NCBI GenBank assembly: GCA_965197765.1
Contig: OZ240225.1
Coordinates: forward strand, 1,366,837 to 1,430,836
Reading direction: 5' to 3'
Source of the DNA: Dehalococcoidia bacterium
GTDB lineage: Bacteria; Chloroflexota; Dehalococcoidia; Lucifugimonadales; Lucifugimonadaceae
DNA: 64,000 nt
Of the stretch, positions 35,064-64,000 are shown piece after piece. Each line of letters starts with the position of its first letter. Within the stretch, counting starts at the first letter, position 1. The position numbers and the translations under genes are program-made. The notes below the pieces were generated by a model. That model had not been told where the DNA came from. It did not search any database and saw nothing but the letters and a program-made list of their open reading frames with translations.

Positions 35064-38000
35064 ATGAAGATTTTCCGACGTTTCGACGCGCTCCTGCTTA
35101 TCGCCTTTGCGATCGGGCTGACGGCCGTCGCCGTCCTGCCGCTCATCCCCTGGGTCGTCGACGCCCAGACGACGAACCAGTCCGCCACCGGCCGGCCCAG
35201 GGTCCTGGCTGCCGCGCAAGGCGCAAGCATCCTGTTCGCCGACACTGAGGGCATCAACGACGGGAACGGACTCTCCTTTGAAGAAATCGCTACTAATGCT
35301 CCCATCAGGTTCAACTGGTCCTACCAGTGGATCCGGGTCGACGGCGACTCCGAGACGAACGTGGGCGCCGACTCGGCCAGTTACCATCCTGTCCAAGCCG
35401 ATGTCGGCAAGCGGATCAAGGTGAAAGTCTCGTTCACGGACGGGGCCAACTACTCGGAGTCTCGGACCAGCCTGCCGTTCGGCCCGATCGCCGAAGTGGT
35501 CGGCACGACGCAGCTCCCGTTCGTGCTGGTCACCAACAGAGAAGAGGGTACATTAACCACGGCGAACATCACCCAGCAGTACGCCATCGGCTTCAAGCTG
35601 GGAGATCACGGCCGGGGCTATGAAATCTCCAGCGTCATCATCGGCCTCGCCGCGGCCCCGTCCAGTCTGACCGTCTCCCTGTGGAGCGGCGGCCATTCAG
35701 AGGCCTTTCAATCCAATAACGCGAGCAAGCTATTCGACTTTGCCAACCCGGCCTCCTTCGCCGTCGGCAACAACGAGTTCACGGCCCCGGCGGGCGCGTT
35801 CGCGTACCAGAACTTCAACTACTTCGTCGTGCTGTCGGGTTTCGGCTCCTCCCTGTCCATCCTGGAGACGTCGGACAACGAGGAGGGGGACGAAGGCGTG
35901 TCGGGGGCCATCATCTACGACGATGCGGCCGTCCGGGATTTGACCGCCACTGGACGATGGGCAATTTCCGAAGATCGCACCAGCGTGTTGGAACTGACCG
36001 TCATGGGCTCGAAGCGAGGTCACGGCATCATAGCTTCGAACTATGCCCAACCCTTCATCGACGATAAGGGCACTGTTGACACTATGGACGACACGGGTGG
36101 TGACCAAGAGATCGTATCGGTGGGCGACACGGGCGGTATCGGGATCGAACTCGGAGCAGCGGACCGCTACCTCATCCGCGGTGTTTCCTTCAACTCGGAC
36201 GACACAACACCAAGTAACGGCGGCTTTACCAACCCGTTCTCCCTGCGCTCGGGTACCTTGACGGGCGCCAAGCAGTTCAGCCTGGTCAATACACGTAACG
36301 TACCCGGCCTGCCGGTTTGGACGGCTCCGCGAGGTGCAACCGTGGCAGGAGGGTGCACTACGAGCATGGGTGTGGAGACATGCAAAAAATACGTCTTCGA
36401 CCAGATGGGCAATATTGGCTCTGATACTGGCGACGTAAAGAAACGGAGACGAATTAGCATCTTAACCCGCTATTCAAGCGCCGAATCCGACGGCGTTGAC
36501 AGCCCGGCGGCGGCGGGCGTGAGCTTCACCGGCGCAACAGATGATATAGAAGCAGACGACCCGTACATGGCCCTTCTCGGCGAGCCGCTCCACGCGATGG
36601 TGCAGAACCTGGGCCAGGCCGACGACGGTTACCGTTCCGTCGGCGGCGCCAACAGAAAGGTGTTGTCGCAGGGCTTCACGACCGGCTCCAACGTGTCCTT
36701 GCTGCAGGGCATCGGCGTCAACATCGAAGGCTCCGGCAGCAGCTTCCCTGACGGGCCGACCTCCGTGTCGGTTGCCGTGCACGCCGATTCGGGCGGGAAG
36801 CCGGGCGCAAAGCTCTTCGACCTCGTCAGTCCCGACGAGTTCGCGGCCGGCCACAGCTTCTTCGAGGCGCCACCGGGAACGACTCTGGCGCCCAACACCT
36901 CTTATGTGGTGGCGTGGAGGCATATCGGCGGCACTGTGCACAGGATGCGGAAGACCTCGAGCAACGGCGAGGACACGGGCGCGCTGTCAGGCTTCAGCTT
37001 GGCGAACACGTTCTATCAGGGCGTCGACCTTGACAACATGGCAGCGGACCCGGGCAGCGATGTGTTGGAGATCGCGGTATACAGAAGCAGGAAAGTGCCC
37101 AACGCCACCGGCCGGCCGAGAGTCTTGGCTTCCCCGGAAGGCACCGGAATTCTGTTCGCCGACCCTGCGCGCATCAAGGATACCGACGGGCTGCCCTTCG
37201 CGTTCGACGGCCCGACCATGAGTGTGGTCCGGCTTCGCCTGTACTATTACCAGTGGATCCGGGTTGACGCCGAGACCGCTGCGGAGACCCTCGTCGGTGT
37301 CGACTCGCCGAGCTACCAGCGTGTCGACGCCGATGTCGGGCACCTGATGAAGGTGCGGGTGTCGTTCTTCGACCAGGCCGGCGCCTTTGAGAGTTTGACC
37401 AGCCTGCCGTTCGGCCCGGTTCACGGAAGACCGGCGCTGCTGCGGGAGTCGACGCTGGTCGCCAACACGGGCCAGTCTGCGTCGGCCGAGGAGGAGATCA
37501 CCGGGCAGTACGCCATGGGGTTCCGGCTGGGCGGTCACGGCCAAGGCTACGAGATCTCCAGCGTCTCAATCGATCTGGCCGCGGCGCCGTCGAGCCTGAC
37601 CGTGTCGCTGTGGGCCGGCGGCCGTGAAGGGATGCCAGGCAGCGATCGCACGAGTTACAAGCTGTTCGACTTCGCGAACCCGTCGTCCTTTCGGGTGGGG
37701 CTGAACGAATTCACGGCTCCCGGAGGGGCATTCGCGTACCAGAACGTCAACTACTACATCGTGCTGTCGGGTTTCGGCGCCTCGCTAAAGATCAAAGAGA
37801 CGACGTCTAACAATGAGGATTCGGGCGGCGAGACGGGAGCCGTCATCTTCGACAGCGCGAGAACCCGGGGGTTGCATTTGACCGGAGTCTGGCGCAGTTC
37901 CACCTCGCGCAGCAGCGTGCTGCGAATGGCCGTGAAGGGCTCGCAGCGCGAGCGCGGCATCCTTATCGCGAACTACGCCCAGGCCGCCAAAGATGAATTG

Positions 38001-40181
38001 GGAGCCACGAACCAAGAAATCGTCTCGGTTGGCGATTTGACCACTGTCGAGATCGATGTCGGAGAGGCGGATCGCTACCTCGTCCGCGGTGTTTCGTTCC
38101 AAGGGGACGGCACAAATACCGTTCCGGCCTTTCCTTCACAACTGGGCGTTTCATCAACAGCCGGCCCAATGGGCGATCCGATGTACCTGTGGAACACAAG
38201 CTCGCGTACTGATTCGGAAATAACCAAGGCCGCCGCTCTGTTCAGCATGGCCACCACGCGCTCCTATGCAGGCATAAGTGTGTGGACGGCTCCGCAGGGC
38301 TCGACCGTGGCGGGAGCAAGCGCGTCATACTTCGTCGGGCAGCGTCCTACCGATCCGAGACTGTTCTCCGTCCTTGGCCGCTTTTATACGACCGAGGTCG
38401 CTGGCGTGGACATGCCAACGGCGGAGGGTGTGGCCTTCGCTACCGACGCAACCGTTGGGGACGGGGCGTGGGGAGACGGCAGACCGCTGATGGCCGTCCT
38501 CGGCGAGCCGCTCGACGCGATGGTGCAGAACTTTGACCAGACCACCAACAGCTACGCCAGTGCCACTGCCACCAACCCGGTGTTGTCGCAGGGCTTCACG
38601 ACCGGCTCCAACGACTTCCCGTACCGGCTGCAGGGCATCGGCTTCGAGATCGAAGGCTCCGGCTCCGAGATACCTGACGGTCCGACCTCTGTGTCGGTGG
38701 CGGTGTACACCGCCGACACGGACGGGAAGCCGGGCGAGAAGCTGTTCGACCTGGCCAGCCCCGCCGACTACGCGGTGGGCCACAGCTTCTTCGAGGCGCC
38801 GCCGCGAGCATACCTGGAGCCGGACACCCCCTACGTGGTGGTCTGGACCCGCCTCGGCGGCACCGCGCACAGGTTGGAGCGAACCACCAGCAACAGCGAG
38901 GACACGGGCGCGGCAACGGGCGCCAGCCTTGCGGACGTCTTATACCGGGGCGCCGACGTGAACAACCTGTCCCCGAACTCAGGCGGCAACTCGTTGGCGC
39001 TGGTGGTGTACACCGAGGTCTTGGACACGGCTATCTTCGTGGAGGGCGGTATCCCGGTGCCCCTGAACTGGTTCCACATATCGGACGGCGCCTATGCGGG
39101 GTACCAGTTCAGGGCGCTCTTCGTCACACATCACGCAATAAACGCCGAACACAATGACATAGAGATCTACAACAAACTTGTCCAGCTCGAAGCCTCTGGC
39201 CGGCCTAAACGGTATCCAGAAGCATCTGGGCGCTCCAACGATCCAGTCATTCGGCGAGTCGCCGAGCAGTTCAAGGCGGTGGTCTGCACCGCGGCGGACA
39301 AAAACGCGCGAACGAACACCGGGATGGAGGGCAGCGGCGTGCCGATCCACTGGCTGGACGGCGGCGCGCAGCATCGCGACACGCTGGTAGCCAACTCGAA
39401 CTCCCAGTTCTTCGGCCCCGAGTGGGTCCAAGACGAATGGGGCGCCATCGTCACCGGGAACTCCACCCCCTTGTTCGAGATCTCCGTGGACGAGGCTACC
39501 AGGGGCGACAAGATCGCGGAGGGGATCTGGACCGGGTGCGACTCCACAGGAATGGCGCATATGGATTACCACTTGGGTTCGGCCATGGGGATGGCCACCC
39601 TGGGCACGCCGGCAGATGAGAGCACCGGCAATGCTCCGATTGGCCCCACCGCTTCCAGTACGGGCATGGTCGCCCTCCCAGTGGGCGAATACCGGTCGAT
39701 CTACGCGATCTCGCCCGTCTTCACGGTGGTTGACGACGGCTCGGAGCGTACCATCTGGTCGTCGAGGATGACGGTGGGAACAAACACGTTTGCCAGTGCA
39801 ACAATCACGGAGGTAACCACCGGATACGTCGACTTAATTAGTGTCGGCAGCATCGAGGGGTCAAAGCAATTCACCTACGAGGGCGGGACCTACTCTGTGG
39901 TTCGTCTCCGCATCCTTAAGGAAACGACGTCAGGCACCGTCTCAATGAACTTCGTAAACCTGGGAATGTCTTCGCTGCCGCCGGAGGGAACCGACTCGAA
40001 GCTAGCCCTCGAGCTCACCTGCTGGGGAAGCTGCCGCGGCGAGCAGCAAGGCTCACAGCGAACGCGTTTTCTCCTGTCGGAAGCAACACGCGTCGGTAAC
40101 GGTTACTCCTGGGACAACCCCGGCCTGCCCTGGGCCGACGGCGACGAAGTTGTGATCAGGCTCATCGAGCTGCGGGATTGA
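35064..40181 (+). CDS. Giant secreted mosaic protein A (1705 aa)
   Basis: Signal peptide MKIFRRFDALLLIAFAIGLTAVAVLPLIPWVVDAQT. A 640-aa unit is duplicated in tandem (A41 and A681 both start ATGRPRVL...); each unit holds one YQW-type Ig-like repeat and two QxFTTG-type modules. C-terminal part: an FRALFVT... domain and an MTV...WADGDEVVIRLI module. Confidence 0.85.
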   Translation: MKIFRRFDALLLIAFAIGLTAVAVLPLIPWVVDAQTTNQSATGRPRVLAAAQGASILFADTEGINDGNGLSFEEIATNAPIRFNWSYQWIRVDGDSETNVGADSASYHPVQADVGKRIKVKVSFTDGANYSESRTSLPFGPIAEVVGTTQLPFVLVTNREEGTLTTANITQQYAIGFKLGDHGRGYEISSVIIGLAAAPSSLTVSLWSGGHSEAFQSNNASKLFDFANPASFAVGNNEFTAPAGAFAYQNFNYFVVLSGFGSSLSILETSDNEEGDEGVSGAIIYDDAAVRDLTATGRWAISEDRTSVLELTVMGSKRGHGIIASNYAQPFIDDKGTVDTMDDTGGDQEIVSVGDTGGIGIELGAADRYLIRGVSFNSDDTTPSNGGFTNPFSLRSGTLTGAKQFSLVNTRNVPGLPVWTAPRGATVAGGCTTSMGVETCKKYVFDQMGNIGSDTGDVKKRRRISILTRYSSAESDGVDSPAAAGVSFTGATDDIEADDPYMALLGEPLHAMVQNLGQADDGYRSVGGANRKVLSQGFTTGSNVSLLQGIGVNIEGSGSSFPDGPTSVSVAVHADSGGKPGAKLFDLVSPDEFAAGHSFFEAPPGTTLAPNTSYVVAWRHIGGTVHRMRKTSSNGEDTGALSGFSLANTFYQGVDLDNMAADPGSDVLEIAVYRSRKVPNATGRPRVLASPEGTGILFADPARIKDTDGLPFAFDGPTMSVVRLRLYYYQWIRVDAETAAETLVGVDSPSYQRVDADVGHLMKVRVSFFDQAGAFESLTSLPFGPVHGRPALLRESTLVANTGQSASAEEEITGQYAMGFRLGGHGQGYEISSVSIDLAAAPSSLTVSLWAGGREGMPGSDRTSYKLFDFANPSSFRVGLNEFTAPGGAFAYQNVNYYIVLSGFGASLKIKETTSNNEDSGGETGAVIFDSARTRGLHLTGVWRSSTSRSSVLRMAVKGSQRERGILIANYAQAAKDELGATNQEIVSVGDLTTVEIDVGEADRYLVRGVSFQGDGTNTVPAFPSQLGVSSTAGPMGDPMYLWNTSSRTDSEITKAAALFSMATTRSYAGISVWTAPQGSTVAGASASYFVGQRPTDPRLFSVLGRFYTTEVAGVDMPTAEGVAFATDATVGDGAWGDGRPLMAVLGEPLDAMVQNFDQTTNSYASATATNPVLSQGFTTGSNDFPYRLQGIGFEIEGSGSEIPDGPTSVSVAVYTADTDGKPGEKLFDLASPADYAVGHSFFEAPPRAYLEPDTPYVVVWTRLGGTAHRLERTTSNSEDTGAATGASLADVLYRGADVNNLSPNSGGNSLALVVYTEVLDTAIFVEGGIPVPLNWFHISDGAYAGYQFRALFVTHHAINAEHNDIEIYNKLVQLEASGRPKRYPEASGRSNDPVIRRVAEQFKAVVCTAADKNARTNTGMEGSGVPIHWLDGGAQHRDTLVANSNSQFFGPEWVQDEWGAIVTGNSTPLFEISVDEATRGDKIAEGIWTGCDSTGMAHMDYHLGSAMGMATLGTPADESTGNAPIGPTASSTGMVALPVGEYRSIYAISPVFTVVDDGSERTIWSSRMTVGTNTFASATITEVTTGYVDLISVGSIEGSKQFTYEGGTYSVVRLRILKETTSGTVSMNFVNLGMSSLPPEGTDSKLALELTCWGSCRGEQQGSQRTRFLLSEATRVGNGYSWDNPGLPWADGDEVVIRLIELRD

Positions 40182-40228
40182 TGAGCCCCATCTTCCCTGA
40201 ACAACCCATGACCAGAGGCTAATGACAG

Positions 40229-42865
40229 ATGACATCAATGAGACTCATCGATCTGACCGACTCCGCCTCTAGGAGAGAGGCTCTCCTTGGCCCGTCGACC
40301 GGGGCCCTGATCCCATGGGGCATCAGGGTGGCCCTGATGGCGGCGATGGTGCTGGCGGGCATGGCCCTCTGGTCGACGCAGGCGTACGCGGACGGGGAAG
40401 AGGCTGGAGAGCCGGTCTGGTCGGCCGACATGACGGTGGTGGAGTACACCAGCGTCTCCATCGGCGCGGCCAGCGCCGACCTCTTCTCCAACGTGGGCGG
40501 AAGCGGCAACCTGCAGATCAAGTCGCTCTGGTCGCACATACCGGACCGCGATCTGCGCCTGGCATTTACAGACGAGGTTCCCAACGCTGCGGACTACACC
40601 CTGCAGGTCGGCGACCTCTCCCTGGAGTTTCCCGAGGATAGCTCCGGCTCCAGCAGCTTCAAATGGCACGACGTGGACGTCGATTGGGAAGACGGTCAAC
40701 TAATTCGTGTACGCATCGTTCTCACGGCCGAAAGCGGCGATCAACAAACCAACACTCCCAACACCCCGGCCACGGGCGTCCCCACCATCAGCGGAACGGC
40801 GCAGGTGGGCGAGACACTGGCGGCGGACACCTCGGGCATCGCGGACGAGGACGGGCTGGACAGTGTTTCCTACCACTACCAGTGGATGCGCACCGATGCC
40901 GACATCGCGGACGCGACGGACTCCACCTACACGCTCACCGACGACGACCAGGGCAATACCATCAAACTGAAGGTGTCGTTCATCGACGACAACGGCAACA
41001 GCGAGACTCTTACCAGCGTCGCGACGACGGAGGTCAGCAAGAGGCCGCAGTTTCTGGTCAGCAACCTGGGCGTCGGGGTCGAAGGCGCCGGCGGGATTCA
41101 GCGAACGCTTAACGCCGCCCGATCAGGGTTTGCCCAGGCATTCACGACGGGCGCGAAGACCGACGGGTACGCAGTCGGCGCCGTCGACATCCAGATGTCG
41201 AACTTCTTCGATGCGTCGAACACGGCGGACCAGCTCCGGGTGACGATCAACGGGGTCGCGAGCGAAGGCGGGCCGGGCGACGCGCGCTGCACCCTGACCA
41301 ATCCGTCGAGCTTCACCGCCCTAAGCGTGATCACCTTCGAGGCGCCGACGGGTGCAGGCTCCTGCCCGCAACTGGCGGCGGAAACAACCCACTTCGTCGT
41401 GATCGAGTGGATCAGTCCGACCGGGACGGACTCTTTTGCAGTGATTCCGCAGACCTATCCCACCAAGGAGTCGGCTGCGATAGCAGAGGATCCGGGCGGC
41501 GCGGAAGGCTGGTCGATCGCCGACCAAGCCTACTATCTCACCGTCGGTTCCGACGCTCGGACCTGGACCGCCTACGACGAGACGGCCAGCTTCAAGATTC
41601 AGGTGAAAGAAGCCGTCGTCACGGCGGCCAAGGCCAACAGCCCGGCCGCGGGCCTGCCCACGATCTCGGGCACGCCCAAGGTGGGCGAGACGCTTACCGC
41701 GGACACGTCTGCCGTTACGGACGAGGACGGGCTGGACGATGTCTCCTACAGCCACCAGTGGCTGGCCGACGGCACGGACATCGACGGAGCCGCCGCCTCG
41801 ACCTACGAGCTTTCCAACTCCGAGACGGGCAAGACCATCCAGGTCAGGGTGACCTTCACCGACGATGACGACAACGCCGAGACCCGGACGAGCGTGGCGA
41901 CGGAGGCGGTAGCTGCCAAGGCCAACACTGCGCCCACCGGCCTTCCCGACATCACGGGCACGCCCCAGGTGGGCGAGACGCTGACGGCCGGCACCTCCAC
42001 CATCAACGACGAAGACGGGCTGGAAAACGTTTCCTACAGCTACCAGTGGATCCGGAGCGACAACGGCGCGGACACCGACATAGCCGGAGCGACTGACTAC
42101 ACCTACACCGTTGTCTTGGCCGACCAGGGCAAGACCATCAAGGTGAAGGTGTCCTTCACCGACGACGCTGACAGCGAGGAGGTCCTGACCAGCGAGGCTA
42201 CCGTCGCCGTCGCGGCGGCCAAGGCCAAGGCCAACAGCCCGGCCGCGGGCCTGCCCACGATCTCGGGCACGCCCCAGGTGGGCGCGACGCTGACGGCGGA
42301 CACGTCTGCCGTTACGGACGAGGACGGGCTGGACGACGTCTCGTACGGCTACCAGTGGATCGCCGGCGGCGCGGACATCGATGGGGCGACCGCCTCGACC
42401 TACGAACTTACCAGCAGCGAGCAGGGCCAGACCGTCCAGGTCCGTGTGACCTTCACCGACGACGGGGACAACGCCGAGACCCTGACCAGCATTGCTACTG
42501 CCGAAGTGGCGTCGTCGCCGGAGCCACTCACCGTCCGGCTGAAGGTCTCTGCCCCGGCAACCCACGACGGATCGACGGAGTTCACCTTTGAGATCGAGTT
42601 TAGCGAGGAGTTCGGCCTGAGCTATGTGACCCTCAGGGACTTGGCATTCGTCGAAACCGGGGGTGAAGTCCGCAAGGCGCAGCGAATGGACAAGCCCAGC
42701 AACATCAAGTGGCGAATAATGGTGAGGCCAGACTCCAGCGAGGATGTGACCATCGTTCTGCCCGTCACCACGGACTGCAACGCCGTTGGGGCCATCTGCA
42801 CCGCGGACGGCAGGAAACTGTCCGACTCGCTGAACTTCACCGTCTCCGGGCCGGGCCAGGAATAA
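40229..42865 (+). CDS. Giant secreted mosaic protein B (878 aa)
   Basis: Hydrophobic signal region ...ALMAAMVLAGMALWSTQAYADG. MTV...WEDGQLIRVRIV module, 4 YQW repeats, one QAFTTG module, and a C-terminal Cys module ending DCNAVGAICTADGRKLSDSLNFTVSGPGQE. Confidence 0.85.
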   Translation: MTSMRLIDLTDSASRREALLGPSTGALIPWGIRVALMAAMVLAGMALWSTQAYADGEEAGEPVWSADMTVVEYTSVSIGAASADLFSNVGGSGNLQIKSLWSHIPDRDLRLAFTDEVPNAADYTLQVGDLSLEFPEDSSGSSSFKWHDVDVDWEDGQLIRVRIVLTAESGDQQTNTPNTPATGVPTISGTAQVGETLAADTSGIADEDGLDSVSYHYQWMRTDADIADATDSTYTLTDDDQGNTIKLKVSFIDDNGNSETLTSVATTEVSKRPQFLVSNLGVGVEGAGGIQRTLNAARSGFAQAFTTGAKTDGYAVGAVDIQMSNFFDASNTADQLRVTINGVASEGGPGDARCTLTNPSSFTALSVITFEAPTGAGSCPQLAAETTHFVVIEWISPTGTDSFAVIPQTYPTKESAAIAEDPGGAEGWSIADQAYYLTVGSDARTWTAYDETASFKIQVKEAVVTAAKANSPAAGLPTISGTPKVGETLTADTSAVTDEDGLDDVSYSHQWLADGTDIDGAAASTYELSNSETGKTIQVRVTFTDDDDNAETRTSVATEAVAAKANTAPTGLPDITGTPQVGETLTAGTSTINDEDGLENVSYSYQWIRSDNGADTDIAGATDYTYTVVLADQGKTIKVKVSFTDDADSEEVLTSEATVAVAAAKAKANSPAAGLPTISGTPQVGATLTADTSAVTDEDGLDDVSYGYQWIAGGADIDGATASTYELTSSEQGQTVQVRVTFTDDGDNAETLTSIATAEVASSPEPLTVRLKVSAPATHDGSTEFTFEIEFSEEFGLSYVTLRDLAFVETGGEVRKAQRMDKPSNIKWRIMVRPDSSEDVTIVLPVTTDCNAVGAICTADGRKLSDSLNFTVSGPGQE

Positions 42866-42868: not shown

Positions 42869-45800
42869 ATGATCGCGTTCCGGCGTCTTGCGCCCCTTCC
42901 ACTGCTGCTCGTCGGGCTGACGGTCCTTGCCGCCGCGGCGTTCGTCCCCTGGATTGTCCACGCCCAGAGCCGGGACTCCGGCAGCGAGTTCACTCTGGCG
43001 GCCGCCAACGGCTATCCGACCGGCATCTGGTCGGACGGGACCACGATGTGGGTCGCGGACTTCGAGGACTCCAAGCTGTACGCCTACCGGATGTCGGACC
43101 GGAGCCGGGATTCGGGCAAGGATTTCACTCTGGACGCCGTCAACGGCTCTCCGGTGGGAATCTGGTCGGACGGGACCACCATGTGGGCGTCGGACTTCTC
43201 CGACGCCAAGCTGTACGCCTACCGGATGTCGGACCGGAGCCGGGACTCCGGCAAGGACTTCAACACGCTTTCTGCAGCCGGCAACAAATTTCCCGAGGGC
43301 ATCTGGTCGGACGGGATCACGATGTGGGTGGCGGACACCGGCAACGACACGGTGTTCGCCTACGACCTGTCGACCAGGGCCAGGGACTTCGAGAAGGACG
43401 TCACGCTGGCCCCCGGCCACGACTCCCCGATGGGCGTCTGGTCGAACGGATCCACGATGTGGGTTTCGGACTGGAGGGACGCCAAGCTGTACGCCTACCG
43501 GATGTCGGACCGGAGCTGGGACTCCGGGAAGGACTTCGCGCTGGACGCCGACGATGAATCTTACGAGGGCATCTGGTCGGCCGGGTCCACGATGTGGGTG
43601 GCGTCCCGCGACGACGGCACGCTGTACGCCTACGACTGGAACAACCCCGCCGCGGGAACGCCGACGATCGTCGGCGCGGTCCGGGTGGACGAGAAGCTGG
43701 CGGCGGGCACTCACTCCATCGCCGACGCGGACGGGCTGGACGACGCCAACTTCCGCTATCAATGGGTTTCGAGCGACGGGAACGCGTACACGGACATCGC
43801 GGGCGCGACCGGTTCGACCTACACCGTCGCCTCGAGCGACACGGGCAGGACCGTCAAGGTCAGGGTTTCCTTCACCGACCACGCCGGCAACGAAGAGTCG
43901 CTTACAAGCGAGCCGACGGGCCGGGTCGGGGCTCAGGGCGTCTGCGACCGGACGCCTTCGGTGATGGCGGCCATCGTCGCCGGGATGTCCGGCGTCGACG
44001 ACTGCTCCGAGGTTTCCGAGACGAGGCTCGGGACATGGGCCGGCTCGGAGGGCTACGGCCCCGGCGTCACGCCCGGGCTGCGCCTGCAGGGGAGGGGGCT
44101 GTCGGTCCTGCAGGCCGGGGATTTCCGCGACCTGCGCGCGCTGCGCGCCTTGGACCTTAGCAGAAACTTCCTCGAGACTGTGCCGGACGGACTTTTCGAA
44201 GACCTCGAGATGGTGGAGGAGCTCTATCTGTCGGGAAATCTCCTGAACGAACTGCCGGACGGGACGTTCGACGGCCAAACCGCGAATCTGAGCGTTCTGG
44301 ACCTGTCCGGCAACTCGATGGACGAGTTGCCGGAGGGTGTGTTCGACGGCCTGGGAGACCTGCAGAGCCTTTCCCTCTCGGGGAACGGCGTGAAGAACCT
44401 GCCGGAGAACGTGTTCGCCGACCTCGGGAGTCTCGCGGTTCTGGACCTTTCGGGAAACGAGCTTGAGGACCTGCCCGTCGGCGTCTTCGAAGGTCTGTCG
44501 GGGCTGACCGATCTCGACGCGGGCGACAACCCGGGCGCGCCTTTCACGTTCACCGCGGAGCTGGAGCGTCGGGGGGACGATGCGGTCGTGGTCCGATCAG
44601 CCGAAGGCGCGGCGCCGCTCGGCTTGAAGATCGAACTGTCGGCCCTCAACGGGGAGTTGTCCTCCGAGACCGTCATCATCGCCTCGGGCAGTTCATATTC
44701 GGACGTTGTCGACGTCAGTGCGCACGGGGATCGTCCCGTCACAGTGAGAATCGAATCCGCCGCATTTTTGTTGCCAGCAGGAAGTTCCGCGTCGGGCATC
44801 CGCGCCGACCGCGGCAGCGCCATGCTCATGTGGATCGGCAGACCGCAGGTTCAGAGGGAATGGATCCAGGACGGAAACTTCGCTCTTCATCCGGAGAACG
44901 CGGATCCGAAGAGCATATGGTCCGACGGGGAGACGCTCTGGGTCGGCGACGACGGCGCCGGGAAGGTGTTCGCCTACAAGCTGTGGGACAATCCCGATAC
45001 CGCGGTCAACGAGTACGGGACCCGAGACCCGGGCTGGGACGTTCCGAGCCTGGGCCAGGAGGACTACCACGTCACGGGCCACGGCGCTCGCCTGTACGTC
45101 GCCGAAGAGTCCCTCGAAGGCGCCAGTCGGGACGTCTTCGGCTATGACCTGACGGGGCTGACGCGCGCGGAAGACAGAGACTTCGTCTACGGAGGCTTGA
45201 ACGTCGCCGGTGGAGTGTGGATCGTGCGGGGCTTGGCGACGGACGGCCGTCACATGTGGATCACCGACACCACATCGCACGCGCACGCCTTCCGCCTGGC
45301 CGACGACCCGGAGACGCCGGAGGACGAATACGGGAGGCCGGACACCTCCCGGAGGCTGACGATCCCGGGCTCGGGACAGCTGACGGGCCTCTTCACCGAC
45401 GGGCGGACGATGTGGGGCGTCAGGTTCGCCTCGCACGACACTTCGGTGCGGAGCGTGAAACTGTCCGACGGAACCGGAGCGGGTTACGACTTTCCGCTCC
45501 ACGAGGAAAATGAACACGCCTTCGGCGTCTGGTCGAACGGTGAGACCTTCTACGTCGTCGACGCCGTCGATGCCATGATCTACACCTATGGGGACGTCGA
45601 CGGCGTCGTTCGGCCCTCTGTCGAAGACGCGGAGACCGCAGCCGCGCTGGTCGGCAACACGACGCGGTCCGGCGACGACGCCCACGACCTGGGCTCGGCC
45701 GGCGTCAAGAGGGCTCAGGCGTTCACCACCGGGCCCAACAACCCCGGGTACGCGCTGGCATCCGTCGGGATCGGTTTCGGCGACGTTTCGGACGCGTCGT

Positions 45801-50228: not shown

Positions 50229-50529
50229 GCCTTGAAGAGTCTCTACAGTTTTCATGGGTTGATGCGTAAGAAGAATCACCAGATAACCGGAATCACAGGC
50301 CGCCGCTCTACGTGCGGACAGCGGAGGAGGTCGTAGGCCCCGCTCATCCCGCCCGTGCAGAGGGAGGCATTCATTTGGCGCTCGACAGACCGGTCCATGC
50401 ACCTGAGGCGGCGGACAGCCCCCGCCGTCGCGGCTCCGGTCGCTCTGGGGTCAGCCGCGCACGGCGACCTAGCACAGATGTCCCCCGGGTTTATCGATTC
50501 TTCGTGCTGGGTAGAAAAAGGGTGGTGCC

Positions 50530-53500
50530 ATGACTCTGCCCAGCCGCCGTGCTCCTCTAACCCTCCTCATCCTTCCCGGGCTACTAGCCCTATTCGCCCT
50601 GTACTTGGTCATACCCTGGTCCACAGCCTCCGCGCAGCAAGCCTCACAGGAGGATACCTGTCCCGGAGCCGACTCAGCCCCGACGCCGACCGTGGTAGAG
50701 GTTCGGGCCGTTCCTATCGTGGTCGAGTCCACTACCGACGAGTACTTCGTGCTCTATGTGCGGCACGATCTGGACGCGGACACCACGTTTGAAGTACCGG
50801 TCGGAGTGACCCTGGGCCAGGACGGCGCCACGACGCTGACCGAGAGCCCGGAGGCGCTGCCCAAAGAGCGCTACCGGGTGGAGAAATACCTCGTCAGCGA
50901 CCCCGCCGATGTCGATGGTGATTGCACTGATGACATTACAGAGCTGGCGGACCCGGTGGGCATGAACCCGGTGAACCCTGTCCCAGCCATGAGGTTTGAC
51001 GATGGCGCGGCGGCCATTCCTAACCGCGAGACGTATATGTCGCTTGCCTACAAGGGTGACAGCGGTATCGACAGCCATCTCAGGAACCTGGAGGCCGTCA
51101 AGTTCCATATGGTCGACATGAACACCGACCGCCCATCCGTCTATTTCATGAACACCAAGACGTACCGACGACACTATGACTTCTCGGCGGCCGTTGGTCT
51201 CGAGGTCAACCCACTCCACGGACATGAGACGATGATCGCCGAGATGGTATACCACCCAACAGCGGTTGCTCCCGACGGGTCTCTGGGTGTTTATCGTTTC
51301 CAGTTCGGGGCCAACGATGTCTACTCTTTCAAAGAGATTTCCTATGCGTTCACGGTTCTGGCAGCCAGCATGCCGCTCCTGGAAGATAACCTCGCCTACT
51401 ATCCGATGTGGTCCAAGGCGGTGGCACGGTATCACAAGGATCAGTCTCTCTATGATGATTCCCGGGTCGACGTGCTGCTCGCAGAAGACATCGCTTTCGA
51501 TCTGGATTTCATCTCCCTCAACCGGGGAAGGGGGTTCGGTTTCCTGCGGGTCATGGCGCTGGAGGAACGCCCCAACCCTCGCGACATCGTGATCTATGAC
51601 GCCCTGCCCAACGAGCTCCCCCGCGTTGCCGGCATCATCACCACCGTGCCGCAAACGCCGCTTTCGCATGTCAACCTGCGCGCCGTGCAAGACGGCGTCC
51701 CCAACGCCTTTGTCCGCGACGCTCTGGAGGCCCCCGACATTGAGGGTCTCATCGGCAGCTATGTCCAGTACCTTGTAGGATCGACCGCGTACTTTGTCTT
51801 CGCAGCCTCGCCCTCGGAAGTCGATACCCACTACGCCGATTCCCGCCCTTCCGAGCCCCAGACGCCGGAACGGGACCTTACGGTCACGGAAATCACCCCC
51901 CTCAGCGACATTGAATTCGACGACTGGAACGCGTTTGGCGTCAAGGCGGCGAACGTGGCCGTTCTGGGAACTCTGGACTTTCCCGAGAACACCGTCCCCG
52001 ACGGGTACGCGGTGCCGTTCTACTTCTACGACGAGTTCATGAAGCACAACGGGTTCTACGACGACGTTAAGGAATTGCTGGCCGACCCGAATTTCCAATC
52101 GGACTTCGACACTCAGGAGTCCAAGCTCAAGAAGCTGCGCAAGAAGATTAAGAAGGGCGAGACGCCCGAATGGATGACCGGCGCGCTGGAGGAGATGCAC
52201 GCTGGGTTCCCCGCAGGCACATCCTTGCGCTACCGGTCCAGCACCAACAACGAAGACCTGCCCGGTTTCAGCGGCGCGGGGCTGTACGACTCCAAGACAC
52301 AGCATCCTGATGAGACCGAAGAAGACGGGATTGCCAAATCGCTCAAGCAGGTGTACGCCAGCCTGTGGAACTTCCGGGCATTCACCGAACGCGAGTTCTA
52401 TCGCGTCGATCACCTGGCGGCGGCGATGGGGGTGCTGGTGCATCCCAACTACTCCGACGAACTGGCCAACGGCGTCGCCGTCAGCTTCGATCCTATCCGA
52501 ATGAGATACGGAAATTACTACGTCAACTCGCAGCTCGGAGAGGACCTGGTCACCAATCCCGACGCGCACTCGGCGCCGGAGGAAATCCTGTTGCACCAGG
52601 GCGGTGAGTACACCGTCCTCGCGACCTCCAACCAGATGCAGCAGGGGCAACTCCTTATGAGCGACGCCCAAATGGATCAGTTGCGCCGTCATCTCGAACT
52701 GATCCATGACGAGTTCGCCGAGCTGTACGGTGTCGAAGCCGATGAGCCGTTCGCCATGGAGATCGAGTTCAAGATCACCAGTGACGATGTTCTGTCGATC
52801 AAGCAGGCCCGCCCCTGGGTCTTCGGCGACGACGCACCATCGGAAAACCGCCCGCCTACCGGAGCGCCCACCATCAGTGGGACGGCTCAGGTGGACGAGA
52901 CGCTGACGGCGGACATCTCGGGCATCACCGACGCCGACGGGCTGACCAGCGTTTCTTACAGCTACCAGTGGATCGCAAACGATGCGAGCGCCGACACGGA
53001 CATAAGCGGTCAGACAGGCTCGACCTATACCCTGTCGGACGCCGACGTGGGAAAGACCATCAGTGTGCGGGTGAGCTTTACCGACGACCGGGGCTACGAG
53101 GAGACGCTGACCAGCGCAGCAACCACTGCCGTCACCGGTCCCAACAGCCCGGCCACGGGAGCGCCGACCATCAGTGGGACGGCTCAGGTGGGCGAGACCC
53201 TCACGGCGGACGTTTCCGGCATTGTAGATGCCGACGGGCTGACCAGCGTTTCTTTCAGCTACCAGTGGATTGCAAACGATGCGAGCGCCGACACGGACAT
53301 AAGCGGTCAGACAGGCTCGACCTACACCCTGGTCTCCGCCGATGTGGGCAAGACCATCAAGCTGCGGGTGTCCTTCACCGACGACGCAGACCACGAGGAG
53401 ACGCAGACCAGCGCAGCAACCACTGCCGTCACCGGTCCCAACAGCCCGGCCACGGGAGCGCCGACCATCAGTGGGACGGCTCAGGTGGGCGAGACCCTCA

Positions 53501-55572: not shown

Positions 55573-55676
55573 AGCGGGAAGTCAATCGCTCCGTCTTACT
55601 GGCAACAATCGATGCCCATCGTTCAAATCATAAAAACATGTCCCGTACCCCGATACGGGATCAAAATTCAGACGTT

Positions 55677-55704
55677 TTGACAACCAGCACATCCGTGCTA
55701 CAAT
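55677..55704 (+). promoter_or_regulatory. Near-consensus sigma70-type promoter (TTGACA-16 nt-TGcTACAAT)
   Basis: TTGACA at 55677-55682, 16-nt spacer, extended -10 TGc then TACAAT at 55699-55704. No convincing ORF follows. Confidence 0.45.
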
Positions 55705-56898
55705 GAAACATGAACCAGTTCGAGACAGCGCCGCGCTGACGAGCGCGGACCCCCCTGAGCCAAGCGGCCAACGGAGATTGTGTCAAGACCGTGAATCCGA
55801 CGACAGACAAGAAACGCGACGCCGCGCCTCCCAAAGAGGCGCCCGGCTCCGCTTCCCTGCGCCGAAACGGTCTTTGGCGACGCACCGCACCAGATCCAGA
55901 GTCGGGTGAAAGACCGCTTGCGTACGTAAGAAGCGAATCCTCAAACAAGTCCCGGTCGCGGCGCAGCATTGATGCGTCGCAGCACGAGCCAGACGTCGGT
56001 CAACCGACGTCAAAGGGCCGGGTAAGCGTTCGTGAATGCGGCAGACGTCTACCCTCGATCGCCACGAGGGGGAGGCTACAGAGCGGGCCCGGGAGGAACC
56101 GGGCTATGGAGGGCGGCGCGACTCTAGTTCCATCGCCGACCTCAGACCCGTCGGTCTGGCGACGGCGGGCGCGGCTGGCACGGGTAGCTAGCGGTCACGC
56201 ATCTCCAAGCGCGGCGACTGTCCACCCGCCCTGCAAACCTCCGCCTGCAGCGGAGGCCGTGGCAGGCCGGAGGTTCCCGGACATCCGGGAACGGGCAGGG
56301 TTTCCATCGCGAAACCCATCGACCCCATCTTCCGGGCGCGGGCGATAACCTCGACCGGTCCTTCATAAAGGGGAAGGATCGGAACGAGCCGCCCAAGCCC
56401 GACGACCAGACAAAAATCTGCGACCTCAACCCGCAGATCAACTAAACACACCCCAACCGCCAGCAACTTAATGGCTCAGCAGCAAACGCCCCTTTCGCAA
56501 GGCGAAAGGGGCGCGAGCCAGCGGAGCGCCGCGAGCGGGGTATGCCCCGGGGCGCCGAGGGGCCGCGCACCAGCCAAACCATCCACACCCCGATCATTCC
56601 CGCGGACGCGGGCGCTTCAGCGGACGGAACGTCCATCCAGAATCAACAAAACACTCCGCTTCTCGCCATCCCAGCGACATCCACTGTCCTTTCGCTCCGC
56701 GAAGGGGACGCGAGCAGGCGAAGTGCCGCTCCCAATCTTCGAGGCCGGTAGGCGCGTTGTCGCGCTTGTTGTCCCAGCTTGAATGTCGATGCTGGACAGA
56801 GCGGCACTTCGGAAGTGGTAGTCTTCGCTAGGGATCATACGCCGGATCAGTCGATTAGCCGAGTTCGATTGGGTTTAGAGAAATCAAAAGGGGCATGA

Positions 56899-57000
56899 AG
56901 CCCTGACGAGGAACGATATAAACCCGGTGCGGTCTGCACCTCCGACGGCCGGAAGCTGTCCGACGGCGTTGGGATCACGGTTTCGGGGCCGGGCGGGTAG
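56899..57000 (+). pseudogene. 3'-terminal remnant of a giant-protein C-terminal module
   Basis: Translates ...KPGAVCTSDGRKLSDGVGITVSGPGG*, colinear with GAICTADGRKLSDSLNFTVSGPGQE* of protein B. An in-frame stop lies 9 codons upstream of the homologous part. Confidence 0.6.
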
Positions 57001-57130
57001 ATCCGATGCGGGAGATGTTCAACGAAATCCGGGCCGAAGCGATACGGAAACCAAACAGACGAATTGAGCGGGTGCGAAATGCACAGGAATGAGATGGAAT
57101 TGCACGTGCACCGATCGGAACGACCGACGC

Positions 57131-57162
57131 GGTCGGCGGAAGCCGCAGGCGCGTGGTCGGTC
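57131..57162 (+). repeat. 32-nt perfect direct repeat, copy 1 (partner at 58598..58629)
   Basis: GGTCGGCGGAAGCCGCAGGCGCGTGGTCGGTC occurs identically at both positions and brackets leader copy 2. Confidence 0.85.
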
Positions 57163-58357
57163 TCCCTGTCGGTAGGGTCGTCTCGGCGGCGTGTGCATGA
57201 CCCCAATCTACCCCCCGTCTGTTGTGCACGCAAGAGCACTTCATACCTGTCGTATGGGCAGAAACACCCTCCCCAAGAGCAAACAATTCGCGGCACCAAG
57301 AGTGGGTCTGGCACTTGTCGATTCGATGAAGAGTCGTTGCTTTTTAATGTGCAGGCCGAACTGCCGATAAGCGGGTTATCAGACTGACACGTCAAGGGCG
57401 GGAGCCGATTGACACGGCCAACCCATCCCGAAGTCTTCAATAGGGCATTCTGCTCGACGTGGAAATATGCTGAAGCGATAATCAAGGCTCGATGCGTAAT
57501 ATGTGAAGCCCATTTTCAAAGGCCATGGCTGTGAGACAAATATGAACCCGCAGCGACCAACATAGTGCGCCGGGCTGGAACTTTAATTTGACTTGACCTA
57601 CTCCTTTACCAGCAATTGCGAAGACAATATGTCAGTTCCCGAGGTCGTCATTATGATCTCAATCTTTTCGAAAAGTATCCGCAGGCGTTTGTGATTAGTC
57701 GGACGCGTCGCTGATCCAGCAATTGAACGGCTGATTCACGGTAATTTCTTCGAGAGCACGTTTTACCTTTCGAAGGTGTAAAAACACCCTCTTCAAGAGC
57801 AAACACTTTGGATCGGCAAATGTGTTATTAGGCAGTTTCCGAGACGATGTCTGGTCTTTAAAGTTTTATGAGTTATGGGACCATCAGGTGGAGATTGAGA
57901 CCTTGCCGTGCATCTAAGGATGGACGGAAACCGTGTCTGTCAGCCCGAAATCGGCGAGCAGATGGCGGAGGTTTCGACCCCGCATCGGAAGATCGCGAAC
58001 ACGCACGCGACAGATGCTCTGTCGGTGCCGTGGCCGTTGGGAGCGCTGTGCAGAGGTGCTGCGACAGTCGTCGCGACGACCGCGCCCATCGGCGATTACG
58101 TAAAACCGACGCATCTTTGGCATCGGTCCCTAGACGTCTCCAAACACCTCCCAGCCGTTCGTAAGCCGTTCTGCAATTCGGCGCTCGAACCAGCAGAAGT
58201 AGGTGCTCTACGCGCGTGCCTGCGCACACAACCAACTGCTATCGAGCTTAAAACGCCAATTGCACGAGAGAACAGACATTCCGGCAAGGGCAAAAATAAC
58301 CGAGAAAAAGCATCACGACGAGAAATCGGAGCGACGGATAAATGAAACCGGTTAATT
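57159..58357 (+). repeat. Leader block copy 2 (duplicate of 33805..35013)
   Basis: Colinear with copy 1. Contains motif copies D (57261..57317) and F (57781..57806). Lies about 345 nt upstream of giant ORF E. Confidence 0.85.
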
Positions 58358-58597
58358 TGCGAGACGGTCGACCTGCGAGCGTGGCTCCAACCATGTCAGA
58401 AGCCGCGTCCGCAGCAACGAGCCTGTCGAATTCCGCTCCCAGGATCGAACCGGGTCGCTCGCGTCGAAATCTTGGAGCAGAAAAATCGAAAGTTGTGGCG
58501 TTGGGCAAGCAGGTTCTCAACGGCACACGCCCGGCCAGTTCAGATCCCTACGCGACTGATCCCGGATTCCGACGTCGTATTCCCCTGTCCGGAGCAA

Positions 58598-58629
58598 GGT
58601 CGGCGGAAGCCGCAGGCGCGTGGTCGGTC
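58598..58629 (+). repeat. 32-nt perfect direct repeat, copy 2
   Basis: Identical to 57131..57162. The following about 30 nt weakly resemble the start of the leader block again. Confidence 0.85.
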
Positions 58630-58701
58630 CTGACGGTCCCTCGGCGCGTCGCAATTGCAGCGACGGATCGAGGTATAACCGTGGCGAATAGCAACCTGAG
58701 A

Positions 58702-61700
58702 ATGAAGCGTCTCGCCGCGCTGGGCTTGATAGCGGCACTCTGCGCCATCATGCTGTCAGCCCCTTGGTTCGCCCAAGCACAGGACGACAACACCCCGTCA
58801 AACCCGGCTTTCGATCTTCACGCGGATAATGCCGCTCCCAAGAGCATTTGGTCCGACGGCACGACCTTGTGGGTGGGCGACGATACCGACGCCGAGGTCT
58901 ACGCCTACAAGCTGGTGGACGATCCCGCCACCACCTTGGTTGACGAGTACGGCACTCGCGATTCGGCCAAGGACATCACCGCGCCGAGTCCAGAGGCTTT
59001 CTTAGTCACCGGCGACGGCGACTACCTGTATCTGGCTGAAGAGGCCCTCCACGGCGGCACCCTGGACTTGTTCGTCTACAACCTGCCGGGTCTCAGCCGT
59101 GCCAGTTCCAAGGATGTCAATCACTCCGCCTTTATCGTGCGGGGACTCGCGTCCGACGGGGAGTATTTCTGGATCAGCCCCACCACCAGCCAAGCGAAGG
59201 CTTTCAAGCTCTCCGACGGCTCCGCGGTCACGTCACGAGACCTGACGATTCCCGGCAGCGGTCAGGTAACCGGGCTCTACACCGACGGGACAACGATGTG
59301 GGGGACCAGATACAGTTCACATTCCACCACCGTCGAGAGCGTCAACTTGGACGGCACCGCCTCGGAATGCGATTTCACGCTTCACGACGACAACGACCAG
59401 GCCTTCGGCATCTGGTCGGACGGGGAGACGATGTACGTCGTCGACTTTATCGACGCCAAGGTCTACACGTATGTGAATCCGTGCGCGCCGACGGCTGATC
59501 CTGGTTTGATCTTGCCAGAATCCGCGCTCGACATCGACGAGGGCGGCTCGGGCACATACAAAGTCAGGCTCGCGAAGGAGCCCACGGCCGATGTGACGGT
59601 GACTCTGACTCAGCCGACCAACACCGACGTGACGGTGGACACGGATTCGGGGATGACGGGCAACCAGACGACGTTGTCGTTCACGACGTCGAACTGGGAG
59701 ACCGATCAAACGGTCACGGTCACGGTCGCATCGGACACGGACGCGGTTGACGATGTTGCGACGATCACGCATACCGCTTCGGGCGCGACGGAATACGCGG
59801 CGCTGGCCGCTGTAGACGTCACCGTCAACGTCGAAGACGATGACAAGCCCGGGTTGACACTGTCAAAATCCGCGCTCAACATCGTCGAGGGCGGCTCGGG
59901 CACATACAAAGTCAGGCTCGCGAATCAGCCCACGGCCGATGTGACGGTGACTCTGACTCAGCCGACCAACACCGACGTGACGGTGGATACGGATTCGATG
60001 ACGTTGGGCGACCAGACGACGTTAGCGTTCACGACGTCGAACTGGGACACCGATCAGACGGTGACTGTGACGGTTGCGTCGGACGTGGACGCGGTTGACG
60101 AGAGTGCGACGATCTCGCACGGCGCTTCGGGCGCGACGGAATACGCGGCGCTGAATGCCGTAACCATCGATGTCCAAGTCGTCGACGATGACAAGCGTGT
60201 GTTAACCGACTTCGATCTTCACGCGGATAATGCCGCTCCCAAGAGCATTTGGTCCGACGGCACGACCTTGTGGGTGGGCGACGATACCGACGCCGAGGTC
60301 TACGCCTACAAGCTGGTGGACGATCCCGCCACCACCTTGGTTGACGAGTACGGAACTCGCGATTCGTCCAAGGACATCACCCCGCCGAATCCAGAGGCTT
60401 TCTTAGTCACCGGCGACGGCGACTACCTGTATCTGGCTGAAGAGGCCCTCGACGGCACCACCCTGGACTTGTTCGTCTACAACCTGCCGGGTCTCAGCCG
60501 TGCCAGTTCCAAGGATGTCAATCACTCCGCCTTTATCGTGCGGGGACTCGCGACCGACGGGGAGTATTTCTGGATCACTCCCACCACCAGCCAAGCGAAG
60601 GCTTTCAAGCTCTCCGACGGCTCCGCGGTCACGTCGCGGGATGTGACGTTTCCCGGCAGCGGTCAGGTAACCGGGCTCTACACCGACGGGACAACGATGT
60701 GGGGGACCAGATACAGTTCACATTCCACCACCGTCGAGAGCGTGAAACTTGACGGCACCGCCTCGGACTGCGATTTCACGCTTGACGACGACAACGCCAA
60801 TGCCTTCGGCATCTGGTCGGACGGGGAGACGATGTACGTCGTCGACTTTATCGACGCCAAGGTCTACGTGTATGTGAACCCGTGCGCGGCGCCGGCTGAT
60901 CCTGGTTTGATCTTGCCGAAATCCGCGCTCGGCATCGACGAGGGCGGCTCGGACACATACAATGTCAGGCTCGCGAAGCAGCCCACGGCCAATGTGACAG
61001 TAACTTTGGGCCAGCCGTCGAACACCGACGTGACGGTGGATACAGATTCGATGACGGCGGGCAACCAGGACTTGTTGACGTTTACAACGGCGGACTGGGA
61101 AACTGATCAGACGGTGACGGTCACGGTCGCGTCGGACGCGGATGCGGCGGACGATGTCGCGACGATCACGCACGCCATCAACGGCGCGACGGAATATGCG
61201 GCACTGGATGACGTAGACGTCGTCGTCAACGTCGACGACGATGAGTCGGCGGACGTGTCTAGCACGTCGGAAACGCTCAATCTGACGGAGCCGGATTCAG
61301 GCACCACGACGAGCACGTACACGCTTACCCTGAGCGCGGTGCCAACATCGGATGTGACGGTTTCGATGGAGGTTGAGGCGGTTACGCCGGCGCAGGTGAG
61401 CGGGCAGGCGTGGTCGAATCCCGACATCTCCGTCACGTCGCCGGTCACGTTGGGTTCCACCAACTGGATGACCGGAGAGACGGTCACCGTCACGTTGCCG
61501 ACGGACACCGACGCCGAGGACGACGTTGCGAGGATCGTGCACACCGTGACGCAGAGCGGCGGATCGATGGAGTTCAACGGATACGTGCTCGGGAACACAA
61601 CTGTCAACATCTCGGACCCTGAGACGCCGGTCGTCGAATTCAAGTTATCGACGGAGTCCGCGTCCGACTGGAGCACAGCACCAGACTTAACCATTGCCGA

Positions 61701-64000: not shown

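Follow-up and report, generated by a model that had tools for sequence, protein, structure and literature searches.

A 64,000-nucleotide stretch of contig OZ240225.1 from a Dehalococcoidia bacterium assembly (GCA_965197765.1), hereafter the window, was found to carry a cluster of five genes, designated A to E, whose giant protein products are assembled from shared modules. The locus is best explained, with somewhat better than even confidence, as a copy of a multigene family, mobile by horizontal transfer and diversified by recombination, that encodes giant exported modular proteins of sponge-associated bacteria. This explanation builds on the observed anatomy of the genes, family size, synteny, cross-phylum similarity, fission and fusion variants and shared cis elements. 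Habitat, domain types and published work together lead us to propose that these proteins probably serve to attach to sponge matrix or cell-surface ligands, or to recognize them.

Organization of the Gene Cluster

The first-pass annotation of the window had reported five consecutive giant open reading frames (ORFs) on one strand, and their positions and lengths proved exact (Table 1). Its figure of about 27.5 kb of coding sequence was revised to 25.2 kb within a span of 28.9 kb, which includes a 3.1-kb gap between D and E and a 0.5-kb spacer between C and D. The spacers measure 47 nt (A–B), 3 nt (B–C), 512 nt (C–D) and 3129 nt (D–E), and the reading frames of all five genes are uninterrupted over 25 kb. 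No secretion genes lie between the five giant ORFs, as had been stated. The end of the window cuts gene E, and the cluster extends past it on the right.

Each of the five proteins was found to have one hydrophobic segment, at its N-terminus and with an AxA/AQ-type site at its end, in line with the signal peptides annotated before, and these signal peptides form a conserved module of the family with the pattern MTxSRRLAPLPLLL...AQ. A 'PW' motif was considered as a family-wide trait of the signal peptides and rejected, being present in only 6 of 30. No C-terminal transmembrane segment, C-terminal LPXTG motif or RTX repeats were found in A–E, whose C-termini are hydrophilic, and neither Pfam nor NCBIfam returned a sorting-domain match in these proteins; the first-pass annotation had recognized no sorting signal on them either. 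The sole LPXTG-like match, LPATG at residue 1665 of C, is internal and lies in a linker between immunoglobulin (Ig)-like repeats.

Module Composition and Architecture

The Ig-like repeats were located with a hidden Markov model (HMM) built from the repeats of D itself, and the architectures were derived from module HMMs made here. A total of 20 full repeats were obtained, with seven each in D and C, four in B, two divergent copies in A and none in E (domain E-values 1e-12 to 1e-56), in agreement with the approximately 20 repeats of 97–99 aa counted previously. In Pfam these repeats match IG_AIR9 and SCAB-Ig (PF23197, PF16709) weakly, with IG_AIR9 scores of 29–61 bits. The ZirU_fam model (NF040485, subfamily cut-off 100 bits) matched the repeated Ig domain only, with scores summed over three to seven stretches of 114.6 bits in B, 146.5 bits in C and 194.5 bits in D.

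The module recognized earlier by a Q[AG]FTTG motif is indeed present in A, B and C, and was identified as the NCBIfam 'choice-of-anchor R' domain (chR, NF041539, curated cut-off 30 bits). It scored 164.6 bits over four stretches in A, with segment scores of 42.4 bits for A 137–510 and 59.5 bits for B 265–465. Four chR domains occur in A, two of them without the QxFTTG motif, and one each, with the motif, in B and C. A single copy of module c (WxxxMTV...WxDG) is carried by each of A–D, just as annotated. Module e, with its Cys-x6-Cys pair, closes B, C and D; this Cys-containing C-terminal module had been listed among the shared blocks, and it is absent from A and from the visible part of E. The two kinds of propeller-blade modules in the earlier description are also present, confined to C and E and mutually homologous (31% identity, E 5e-24): five tandem 45-aa blade-like repeats with the pattern 'IWSDGTTMWV..LYAY' at the N-terminus of C, and a unit of about 230 aa with five degenerate blade repeats (propeller-2), of which C has one copy and E two, with 54–55% identity between those of C and those of E. 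The visible part of E contains no Ig, chR, c or e module. Because propeller-2 alone is common to E and the others, E is within this visible part a loose member of the set, and not the equal member that had been described.

Two inserted domains in C were confirmed as annotated, namely a leucine-rich repeat (LRR; Pfam LRR_8, 98 bits) and a propeller of the pyrroloquinoline quinone (PQQ)-type dehydrogenase kind, with GSDH (PF07995) matching residues 1323–1654 at 230.3 bits over model positions 1–328 of 332, the full-length six-bladed propeller model. Of the phosphoenolpyruvate (PEP)-utilizer/ATP-grasp unit proposed for D, the ATP-grasp part stood: Pfam PPDK_N matched residues 469–768 at 87 bits, and PEP synthases of the PDB aligned with this domain (E 9e-7), the nucleotide-binding motif RSS..EDLP..SFAG being kept. 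The swivel part did not, as no PEP-utilizers swivel and no PEP/pyruvate-binding domain was detected, residues 36–470 having no Pfam match at E ≤ 1 and the PDB alignments spanning the ATP-grasp part only.

Two further candidate assignments were not supported. An endostatin/DUF1554 domain in A (residues ~1310–1565) gained no support in sequence-level tests, with no Pfam match in A or 12 homologues and only noise from the PDB profile (E ≥ 0.14); this region, here called domain X, had been regarded as unique to one protein, and it is conserved at 40–57% identity in A-type proteins of many genomes. The cadherin/Calx-like repeats likewise gained no support, since the 11 repeats of ~115 aa in E matched neither PF03160 nor PF00028 at E ≤ 0.1, nor any PDB entry; PF03160 does occur in other database members of the wider family. 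The PDB profile and sequence searches were uninformative for modules e and c, propeller-1, domain X, the E repeat, the Ig repeat and chR.

The AlphaFold2 model of module e, predicted from an alignment of 35 family sequences, has a predicted local distance difference test (pLDDT) score of 95 and forms an Ig-like sandwich. Its Foldseek neighbors are Ig-like domains of mycobacterial L,D-transpeptidases (Ldt), ChiW and the S-layer protein SbsB at template modeling (TM) scores of ~0.5, and the likeness of the predicted fold to them is a generic resemblance. The model of module c (pLDDT 90.6) is all-beta with eleven strands. Nothing significant was obtained for it among PDB structures (best E 0.13, TM ≤ 0.38), and in a viral predicted-structure library it matched small (~130-aa) uncharacterized proteins of uncultured tailed phages (TM 0.66–0.76, E 2e-6 to 5e-4). 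The sequence of module c gave no match in Pfam, NCBIfam or PHROGs. Its profile matched 3325 of the 1.84 billion cluster representatives, including a 6575-aa protein with 17 copies, and the members looked up all came from European Nucleotide Archive (ENA) assemblies, none carrying a protein name.

Distribution and Conservation of the Family

Of 8000 candidates scored, more than 2995 proved to be homologues of B; almost all of these derive from ENA metagenome assemblies, and no protein name is attached to any of them. One database protein (P0006), on a 3.08-Mb contig, is 100% identical to B. Among GTDB representatives (one genome per species), relatives were found in 42 loci (L numbers here and below denote related loci), from metagenome-assembled genomes labeled Dehalococcoidia, Chloroflexota, Tepidiformaceae, Caldilineaceae, Ca. 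Poriferisodalis and Ca. Aldehydirespiratoraceae. The last two belong to Acidimicrobiia (Actinomycetota), and their families are described as symbiotic clades of sponges in which LRR, Calx-beta, fn3 and cadherin proteins are enriched (PMC11706023).

Scanning the 42 loci with the module HMMs revealed conserved architectures and not random mixtures, with repeat numbers that vary. In six loci spanning both phyla (L001, L003, L004, L007, L009 and L026), a B-type gene comes directly after an A-type gene, and the C-type architecture recurs in L010, L012–L015, L022 and L025. Most family members consist of Ig, c, chR and e modules alone. The relatives also show modules in other orders, which extends the earlier observation that the same blocks are reused in different order.

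The organization was recovered in an independent ENA assembly (ERZ25067264; L043), in which a 219-kb contig carries, in this order, the FN3 gene, the response regulator and the kinase on the minus strand and equivalents of A, B, C and D of 1705, 877, 2378 and 1680 aa, the B-equivalent being 93% identical to B. The same order and near-identical lengths show that the cluster is not an assembly artifact, and the chimeric or collapsed assembly against which the first-pass annotation had cautioned is refuted.

Rearrangement and Probable Lateral Exchange

The equivalents of C and D constitute a single ORF of 3300–4550 aa in at least four other genomes (L014, L022, L010 and L042). Residues 5–1770 of C align to residues 6–1765 of the L014 protein at 80% identity, and residues 44–1571 of D to its residues 1758–3294 at 59% identity. 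This fusion in relatives documents module shuffling. In the window, D has gained a leader and signal peptide of its own, and in L012 a D-type 5′ end is fused to a short Ig-e gene. The tail of C (Ig3-e plus 45 nt past the stop) is ~90% identical to the tail of D (48815–50062 vs 54382–55617), a duplicate of up to 1.25 kb that runs past both stops. Recombination among the Ig repeats is the mechanism we infer for the shuffling.

Two side observations were made in the D–E gap. Positions 56925–56997 hold a relic of a module-e C-terminus (...GAVCTSDGRKLSDGVGITVSGPGG followed by a stop), left over from a family gene that has been lost. An exact 32-nt direct repeat (GGTCGGCGGAAGCCGCAGGCGCGTGGTCGGTC) at 57131–57162 and 58598–58629 brackets the E-proximal leader copy and is absent from the 42 related loci; it may represent a recombination junction.

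Substantial similarity was also observed across phyla. Gene B shares 84–86% nucleotide identity over 1.3–1.7 kb with Ca. Poriferisodalis loci, gene C shares 85–89% with Dehalococcoidia loci, and C and the two-component genes together share 82–89%. The best protein match to B among GTDB representatives comes from Poriferisodalis (79%), against 75% for the best Dehalococcoidia match. The GC content at third codon positions (GC3) is 0.78–0.86 in A–E and 0.76–0.80 in the two-component genes, against 0.60–0.70 in the flanking metabolic genes and the FN3 gene. Long collinear matches and a background GC of ~57%, vs 65–68% in Poriferisodalis loci, point to a Dehalococcoidia as the most probable host of the window; the GC content of the related loci did not discriminate donor from recipient. 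In L044, a closed 3.97-Mb genome, three tyrosine integrases lie on one side of an A–B pair, and helix-turn-helix (HTH), ParA/CbiA and TraC-VirB4/TraG-like genes lie on the other, a context (L044 1–4863 and 17190–24341) suggestive of an integrative and conjugative element (ICE). Taken together, the cross-phylum identity, the GC3 anomaly and this ICE-like context argue for lateral exchange between Chloroflexota and Actinomycetota.

No integrase or conjugation block was recognized in the window, where the ORFs at 19.5–27.2 kb have no family matches; four ORFs of 277–586 aa within 19500–27300 gave none in Pfam or NCBIfam. Rfam returned only five tRNAs in the window. To the right of tRNA-Asn (19292–19366), the GC content rises and the GC skew changes sign. 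A genomic island containing the cluster may have its left boundary here; the genes on the left side are ordinary metabolic and transport ones.

Candidate Regulatory Elements and Neighboring Genes

A two-component pair diverges from gene A and is also found next to family genes in L003, L015, L042 and L043; beyond it lies the FN3-repeat gene, which had been correctly noted as next door. A 23-nt motif, AACACYCTC-N4-AGAGCAAACA, occurs in six copies in the window (0 expected by chance), all intergenic and oriented with the downstream gene, and was also observed upstream of family genes in L010, L012–L015, L027 and L043. Its presence at every transcription unit and the syntenic two-component system suggest one regulon. 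The motif would be a candidate operator or promoter element, and the FN3 gene, given its own copy, probably belongs to the same regulon.

Non-coding leaders of two types were observed. A 1.2-kb leader upstream of A (33800–35013) is duplicated upstream of E (57153–58357) with 85.6% identity over 1225 nt. An ORF of 154–156 aa called within it (34545–35015) is judged spurious from the even substitutions per codon position (17/15/18) and a frameshift in the near-identical L043. The second type, represented in the C–D spacer (50130–50487), lies directly upstream of family genes in many genomes at 74–84% nucleotide identity. It contains GGGAGG, then 7 nt, then an ATG/TTG opening an upstream ORF (uORF) of ~50 codons (MALDRPVHAPETADGTTAPAVAAP...), as well as GC-rich hairpins and stops in all three frames at the main start. 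Its variability by codon position is 0.117/0.143/0.188, the third being only slightly raised. Since RNAalifold gave essentially no covariation support for this leader (term −0.06; compensatory changes in 3/20 pairs), no RNA structure is claimed.

Downstream of the genes, the first 45–95 nt past the stops of C and D (50018–50107, 55573–55617) are conserved as a 3′ trailer that recurs after module-e genes in L003, L007, L016, L022 and L042. A near-consensus sigma-70-type promoter (TTGACA, 16 nt, TACAAT, TG extension; 11/12) is located at 55677–55704, 100 nt past the D stop, with no credible gene and no Rfam match downstream of it or elsewhere in the D–E gap. The promoter and terminator scans were not informative.

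In 15 related loci of both phyla, family genes are preceded at a distance of ~40–50 nt by poly-C/G tracts of 9–36 nt. As the tract length differs between paralogues, slipped-strand phase variation is suggested for these relatives. In the window itself no homopolymer reaches 8 bases, and only 5 C stand upstream of D.

Table 1. Coordinates and composition of the genes, modules and regulatory features (window positions unless a related locus is named).
Feature	Position	Strand	Length or composition
Gene A	35064-40181	+	1705 aa; signal peptide, Ig-chR-chR-Ig-chR-chR-X-c; module e absent
A, Ig	35163-35471, 37101-37403		
A, chR	35541-36023, 36591-37088, 37461-37958, 38511-39017		
A, domain X	39021-39743		Conserved
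A, module c	39741-40178		C-terminal
Gene B	40229-42865	+	878 aa; long-n-region signal peptide, c-Ig-chR-Ig3-e
B, module c	40406-40744		
B, Ig	40748-41026		
B, chR	41081-41614		
B, Ig x3	41621-42499		
B, module e	42515-42862		
Gene C	42869-50017	+	2382 aa; signal peptide, blade5-Ig-LRR-prop2-chR-Ig-GSDH-Ig2-c-Ig3-e
C, blades	42968-43654		
C, LRR	44084-44527		
C, propeller-2	44876-45598		
C, chR	45662-46162		
C, GSDH	46835-47830		
C, module c	48452-48793		
C, module e	49670-50014		
Gene D	50530-55572	+	1680 aa; signal peptide, N-region, ATP-grasp, Ig3-c-Ig4-e
D, N-region	50638-51933		Without assignment
D, ATP-grasp	51934-52833		PPDK_N
D, module c	53731-54045		
D, module e	55225-55569		
Gene E	58702 (ATG) to >64000	+	At least 1766 aa, frame still open at window end; signal peptide, propeller-2, 2 repeats of ~115 aa, propeller-2, 9 more repeats of ~115 aa
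E, propeller-2	58810-59481, 60208-60882		
Signal-peptide module	35064-35168, 42869-42967, 50530-50637		N-termini also in L002, L003, L007, L012-L015, L022, L025
FN3-repeat protein	27749-31402	-	1217 aa; fn3 x4, 155.9 bits; same neighbor in L043
Response regulator, LuxR/NarL-type	31684-32340	-	Pfam Response_reg+GerE
Histidine kinase HisKA_3	32342-33676	-	Pfam HisKA_3+HATPase_c
23-nt motif upstream of FN3 gene	31452-31474	-	
23-nt motif upstream of A	33910-33932, 34426-34448	+	
23-nt motif upstream of D	50167-50189	+	
23-nt motif upstream of E	57263-57285, 57783-57805	+	
C-D spacer	50018-50529	+	3′ trailer 50018-~50107, motif 50167-50189, 5′ leader 50130-50487
D-E gap	55573-58701	+	3.1 kb without credible gene; module-e relic, leader copy, two motifs, 32-nt repeats
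5′ leader copies in relatives	L003 5022-5372, 12877-13217; L007 4742-4866, 14453-14557; L015 2015-2382; others		
Poly-C/G tracts in relatives	L003 5376; L006 8424; L007 4875, 14561; L008 730, 5494; L009 5277/12105/18660; L012 1101; L021 5150; L029 1497; L032 7234; others		36 C at L007 4875

Proposed Function and Alternative Explanations

In the proposed mechanism, the N-terminal signal peptides would export the proteins, and the arrays of Ig-like repeats with interspersed c domains would form an extended stalk displaying the binding modules, which would be chR, the five-repeat propeller-like units and the LRR. Enzyme-like domains would be displayed as well, with a predicted PQQ-type sugar dehydrogenase propeller in C and ATP-grasp in D, and most members would end in the Ig-like e domain with its Cys-x6-Cys hairpin. 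The units A-B-C, D, E and the FN3 gene, each with an upstream 23-nt element, would make up one regulon, probably under the adjacent NarL-type two-component system.

Several points weigh against this attachment reading. The export route, localization, ligand binding and regulation are all read from sequence, and the sponge setting is taken from relatives in sponge-symbiotic clades and not from the window's own sample. A twin-arginine pair is present in 4/5 leaders, with no TIGR01409 match reported, and export could be by either Sec or Tat. Since no cell anchor was identified, the proteins could be released instead of surface-bound. The propeller-like fold of the five-repeat modules is suggested by the repeat pattern only, these modules having no Pfam or PDB match. 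The enzyme-like inserts, above all an ATP-grasp domain outside the cell, suit a purely adhesive role poorly.

In a first alternative, an unlikely one, the proteins would be extracellular scaffolds for nutrient capture, with chR, propeller-like and LRR modules binding carbohydrate or glycoprotein near displayed enzymes, so that the cell forages on sponge- or seawater-derived polymers instead of attaching to a host. The full-length GSDH match of 230 bits, the nucleotide-binding motif retained in the ATP-grasp domain, the metabolic and transport genes left of the island and the enrichment of polymer-degrading functions in sponge symbionts (PMC8163846) all favor it. However, the enzyme-like modules occur in only 2/5 proteins, Pfam and NCBIfam showed no domain of a glycoside hydrolase, lyase or protease in A–E, most family members lack enzyme-like modules altogether, and ATP-dependent chemistry outside the cell would be unusual.

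A more far-reaching version of the attachment hypothesis, which we hold only tentatively and think rather doubtful, would see here a 'symbiosis surface system', self-contained and so far undescribed, carried from phylum to phylum by integrative elements in the sponge microbiome. It would comprise the domains c, e, X and the blades, which current libraries lack, a c-c docking of the A–B pair, and a phase-variable 5′ leader formed by a Shine-Dalgarno (SD)-uORF unit and hypervariable poly-C. As A ends and B begins with module c, such docking could tether the anchorless A to B.

Still less probable is a cell-envelope coat, S-layer- or capsule-like on a monoderm cell, whose variability would be a means of escaping phagocytosis by the sponge or adsorption by phages, and not of binding ligands. 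The resemblance of e to Ig-like domains of SbsB (S-layer) and ChiW (a cell-surface enzyme) would fit, as would the strong variation in repeat number and module order across the family, the hypervariable poly-C tracts upstream of relatives' genes, as in phase-variable surface antigens, and the matches of the module c fold to uncharacterized phage proteins only. Yet those Foldseek matches of e are to generic Ig-like folds, no SLH or other wall-binding domain was found, the window has no long homopolymer tract, and S-layers normally consist of one or two abundant proteins and not of many giant paralogues with LRR or enzyme inserts. An assembly artifact or decaying pseudogene array, which the repeat-rich region and the module-e gene-end relic in the D–E gap might bring to mind, is scarcely credible given the independent assembly from another sample with the same order and lengths, longest internal repeats of the window that are just 90–92% identical over 1.0–1.25 kb, five frames that stay open, and orthologous architectures that recur in closed chromosomes.

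The locus bears on the open question of how dozens of unrelated bacterial lineages persist in a filter-feeding, bacteria-eating animal, for which the candidate retention factors have so far been mostly counts of Pfam 'eukaryote-like' domains. It offers a testable case in a family that has thousands of members and conserved gene pairs, with regulatory elements in common, a two-component system as candidate regulator, evidence of Chloroflexota–Actinomycetota exchange and domains missed by current libraries. Domain shuffling is caught in the act here, as gene fission and fusion between genomes that are 85–89% identical, and module c stands out as a well-populated domain family with no Pfam, NCBIfam or PDB counterpart.

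Comparison with Known Systems

SiiE, LapA and MpIBP/RTX are giant adhesins of Gram-negatives with Ig-like stalks and features of the type I secretion system (T1SS). Proteins A–E resemble them in the multi-thousand-residue scale, the tandem Ig-like beta-sandwich stalk presenting putative ligand-binding modules and the acidic, Thr/Asp-rich composition. Unlike them, A–E have no RTX nonapeptides (GGxGxD) and no C-terminal T1SS signal and bear N-terminal signal peptides instead, and no ATP-binding cassette (ABC), membrane fusion protein (MFP) or TolC genes lie in or between the giant ORFs. They also differ from sortase-anchored proteins, lacking the C-terminal LPXTG, hydrophobic segment and basic tail. 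The choice-of-anchor families are named for the alternative C-terminal sorting signals of their members; module b, the chR module, matches choice-of-anchor R proteins (NF041539) well above the cut-off, but A–E have no such C-terminal signal.

ZirU is a protein of ~210 residues that the ZirT transporter exports in Salmonella. The same Ig-type domain is repeated here up to 7 times as a spacer in proteins of 878–2382 aa, and no ZirT-like gene was found in the window. AIR9 is a eukaryotic cytoskeletal protein, and the plant AIR9 A9 and SCAB Ig domains are of the same Ig-like type as the 97–99-aa repeat. Contingency loci for surface proteins in Neisseria, Haemophilus and Bordetella (fim) carry homopolymeric tracts, as do the 15 related loci, but not the window.

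No description of this particular family, of its A-B/C-D arrangement, of the shared leaders or of the fission/fusion variants was found in the literature. The kind of system is known, as giant Ig-repeat adhesin-like and eukaryote-like symbiont proteins, while the family, module c, the leaders and the fission/fusion variants appear to be undescribed. The general phenomenon is already reported in the studies of sponge symbionts (Robbins et al. 2021, PMC8163846; PMC11706023), so the broad category is not new. The eukaryote-like proteins in those studies include LRR, FN3, cadherin, Calx-beta and NHL types, of which an LRR is found here in C and fn3 in the neighboring gene. The studies count Pfam domains, and c, e, the blade repeats, domain X and chR, most of them without a Pfam model, fall outside their domain lists. 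They report exported repeat proteins of Chloroflexota and Actinomycetota. Among sponge symbionts they find repeat proteins of attachment and eukaryote-like type to be enriched and to figure in the detected lateral transfers (PMC8163846, PMC11706023), and both the enrichment and the lateral transfer fit the cross-phylum identity and the GC3 observed in this cluster.

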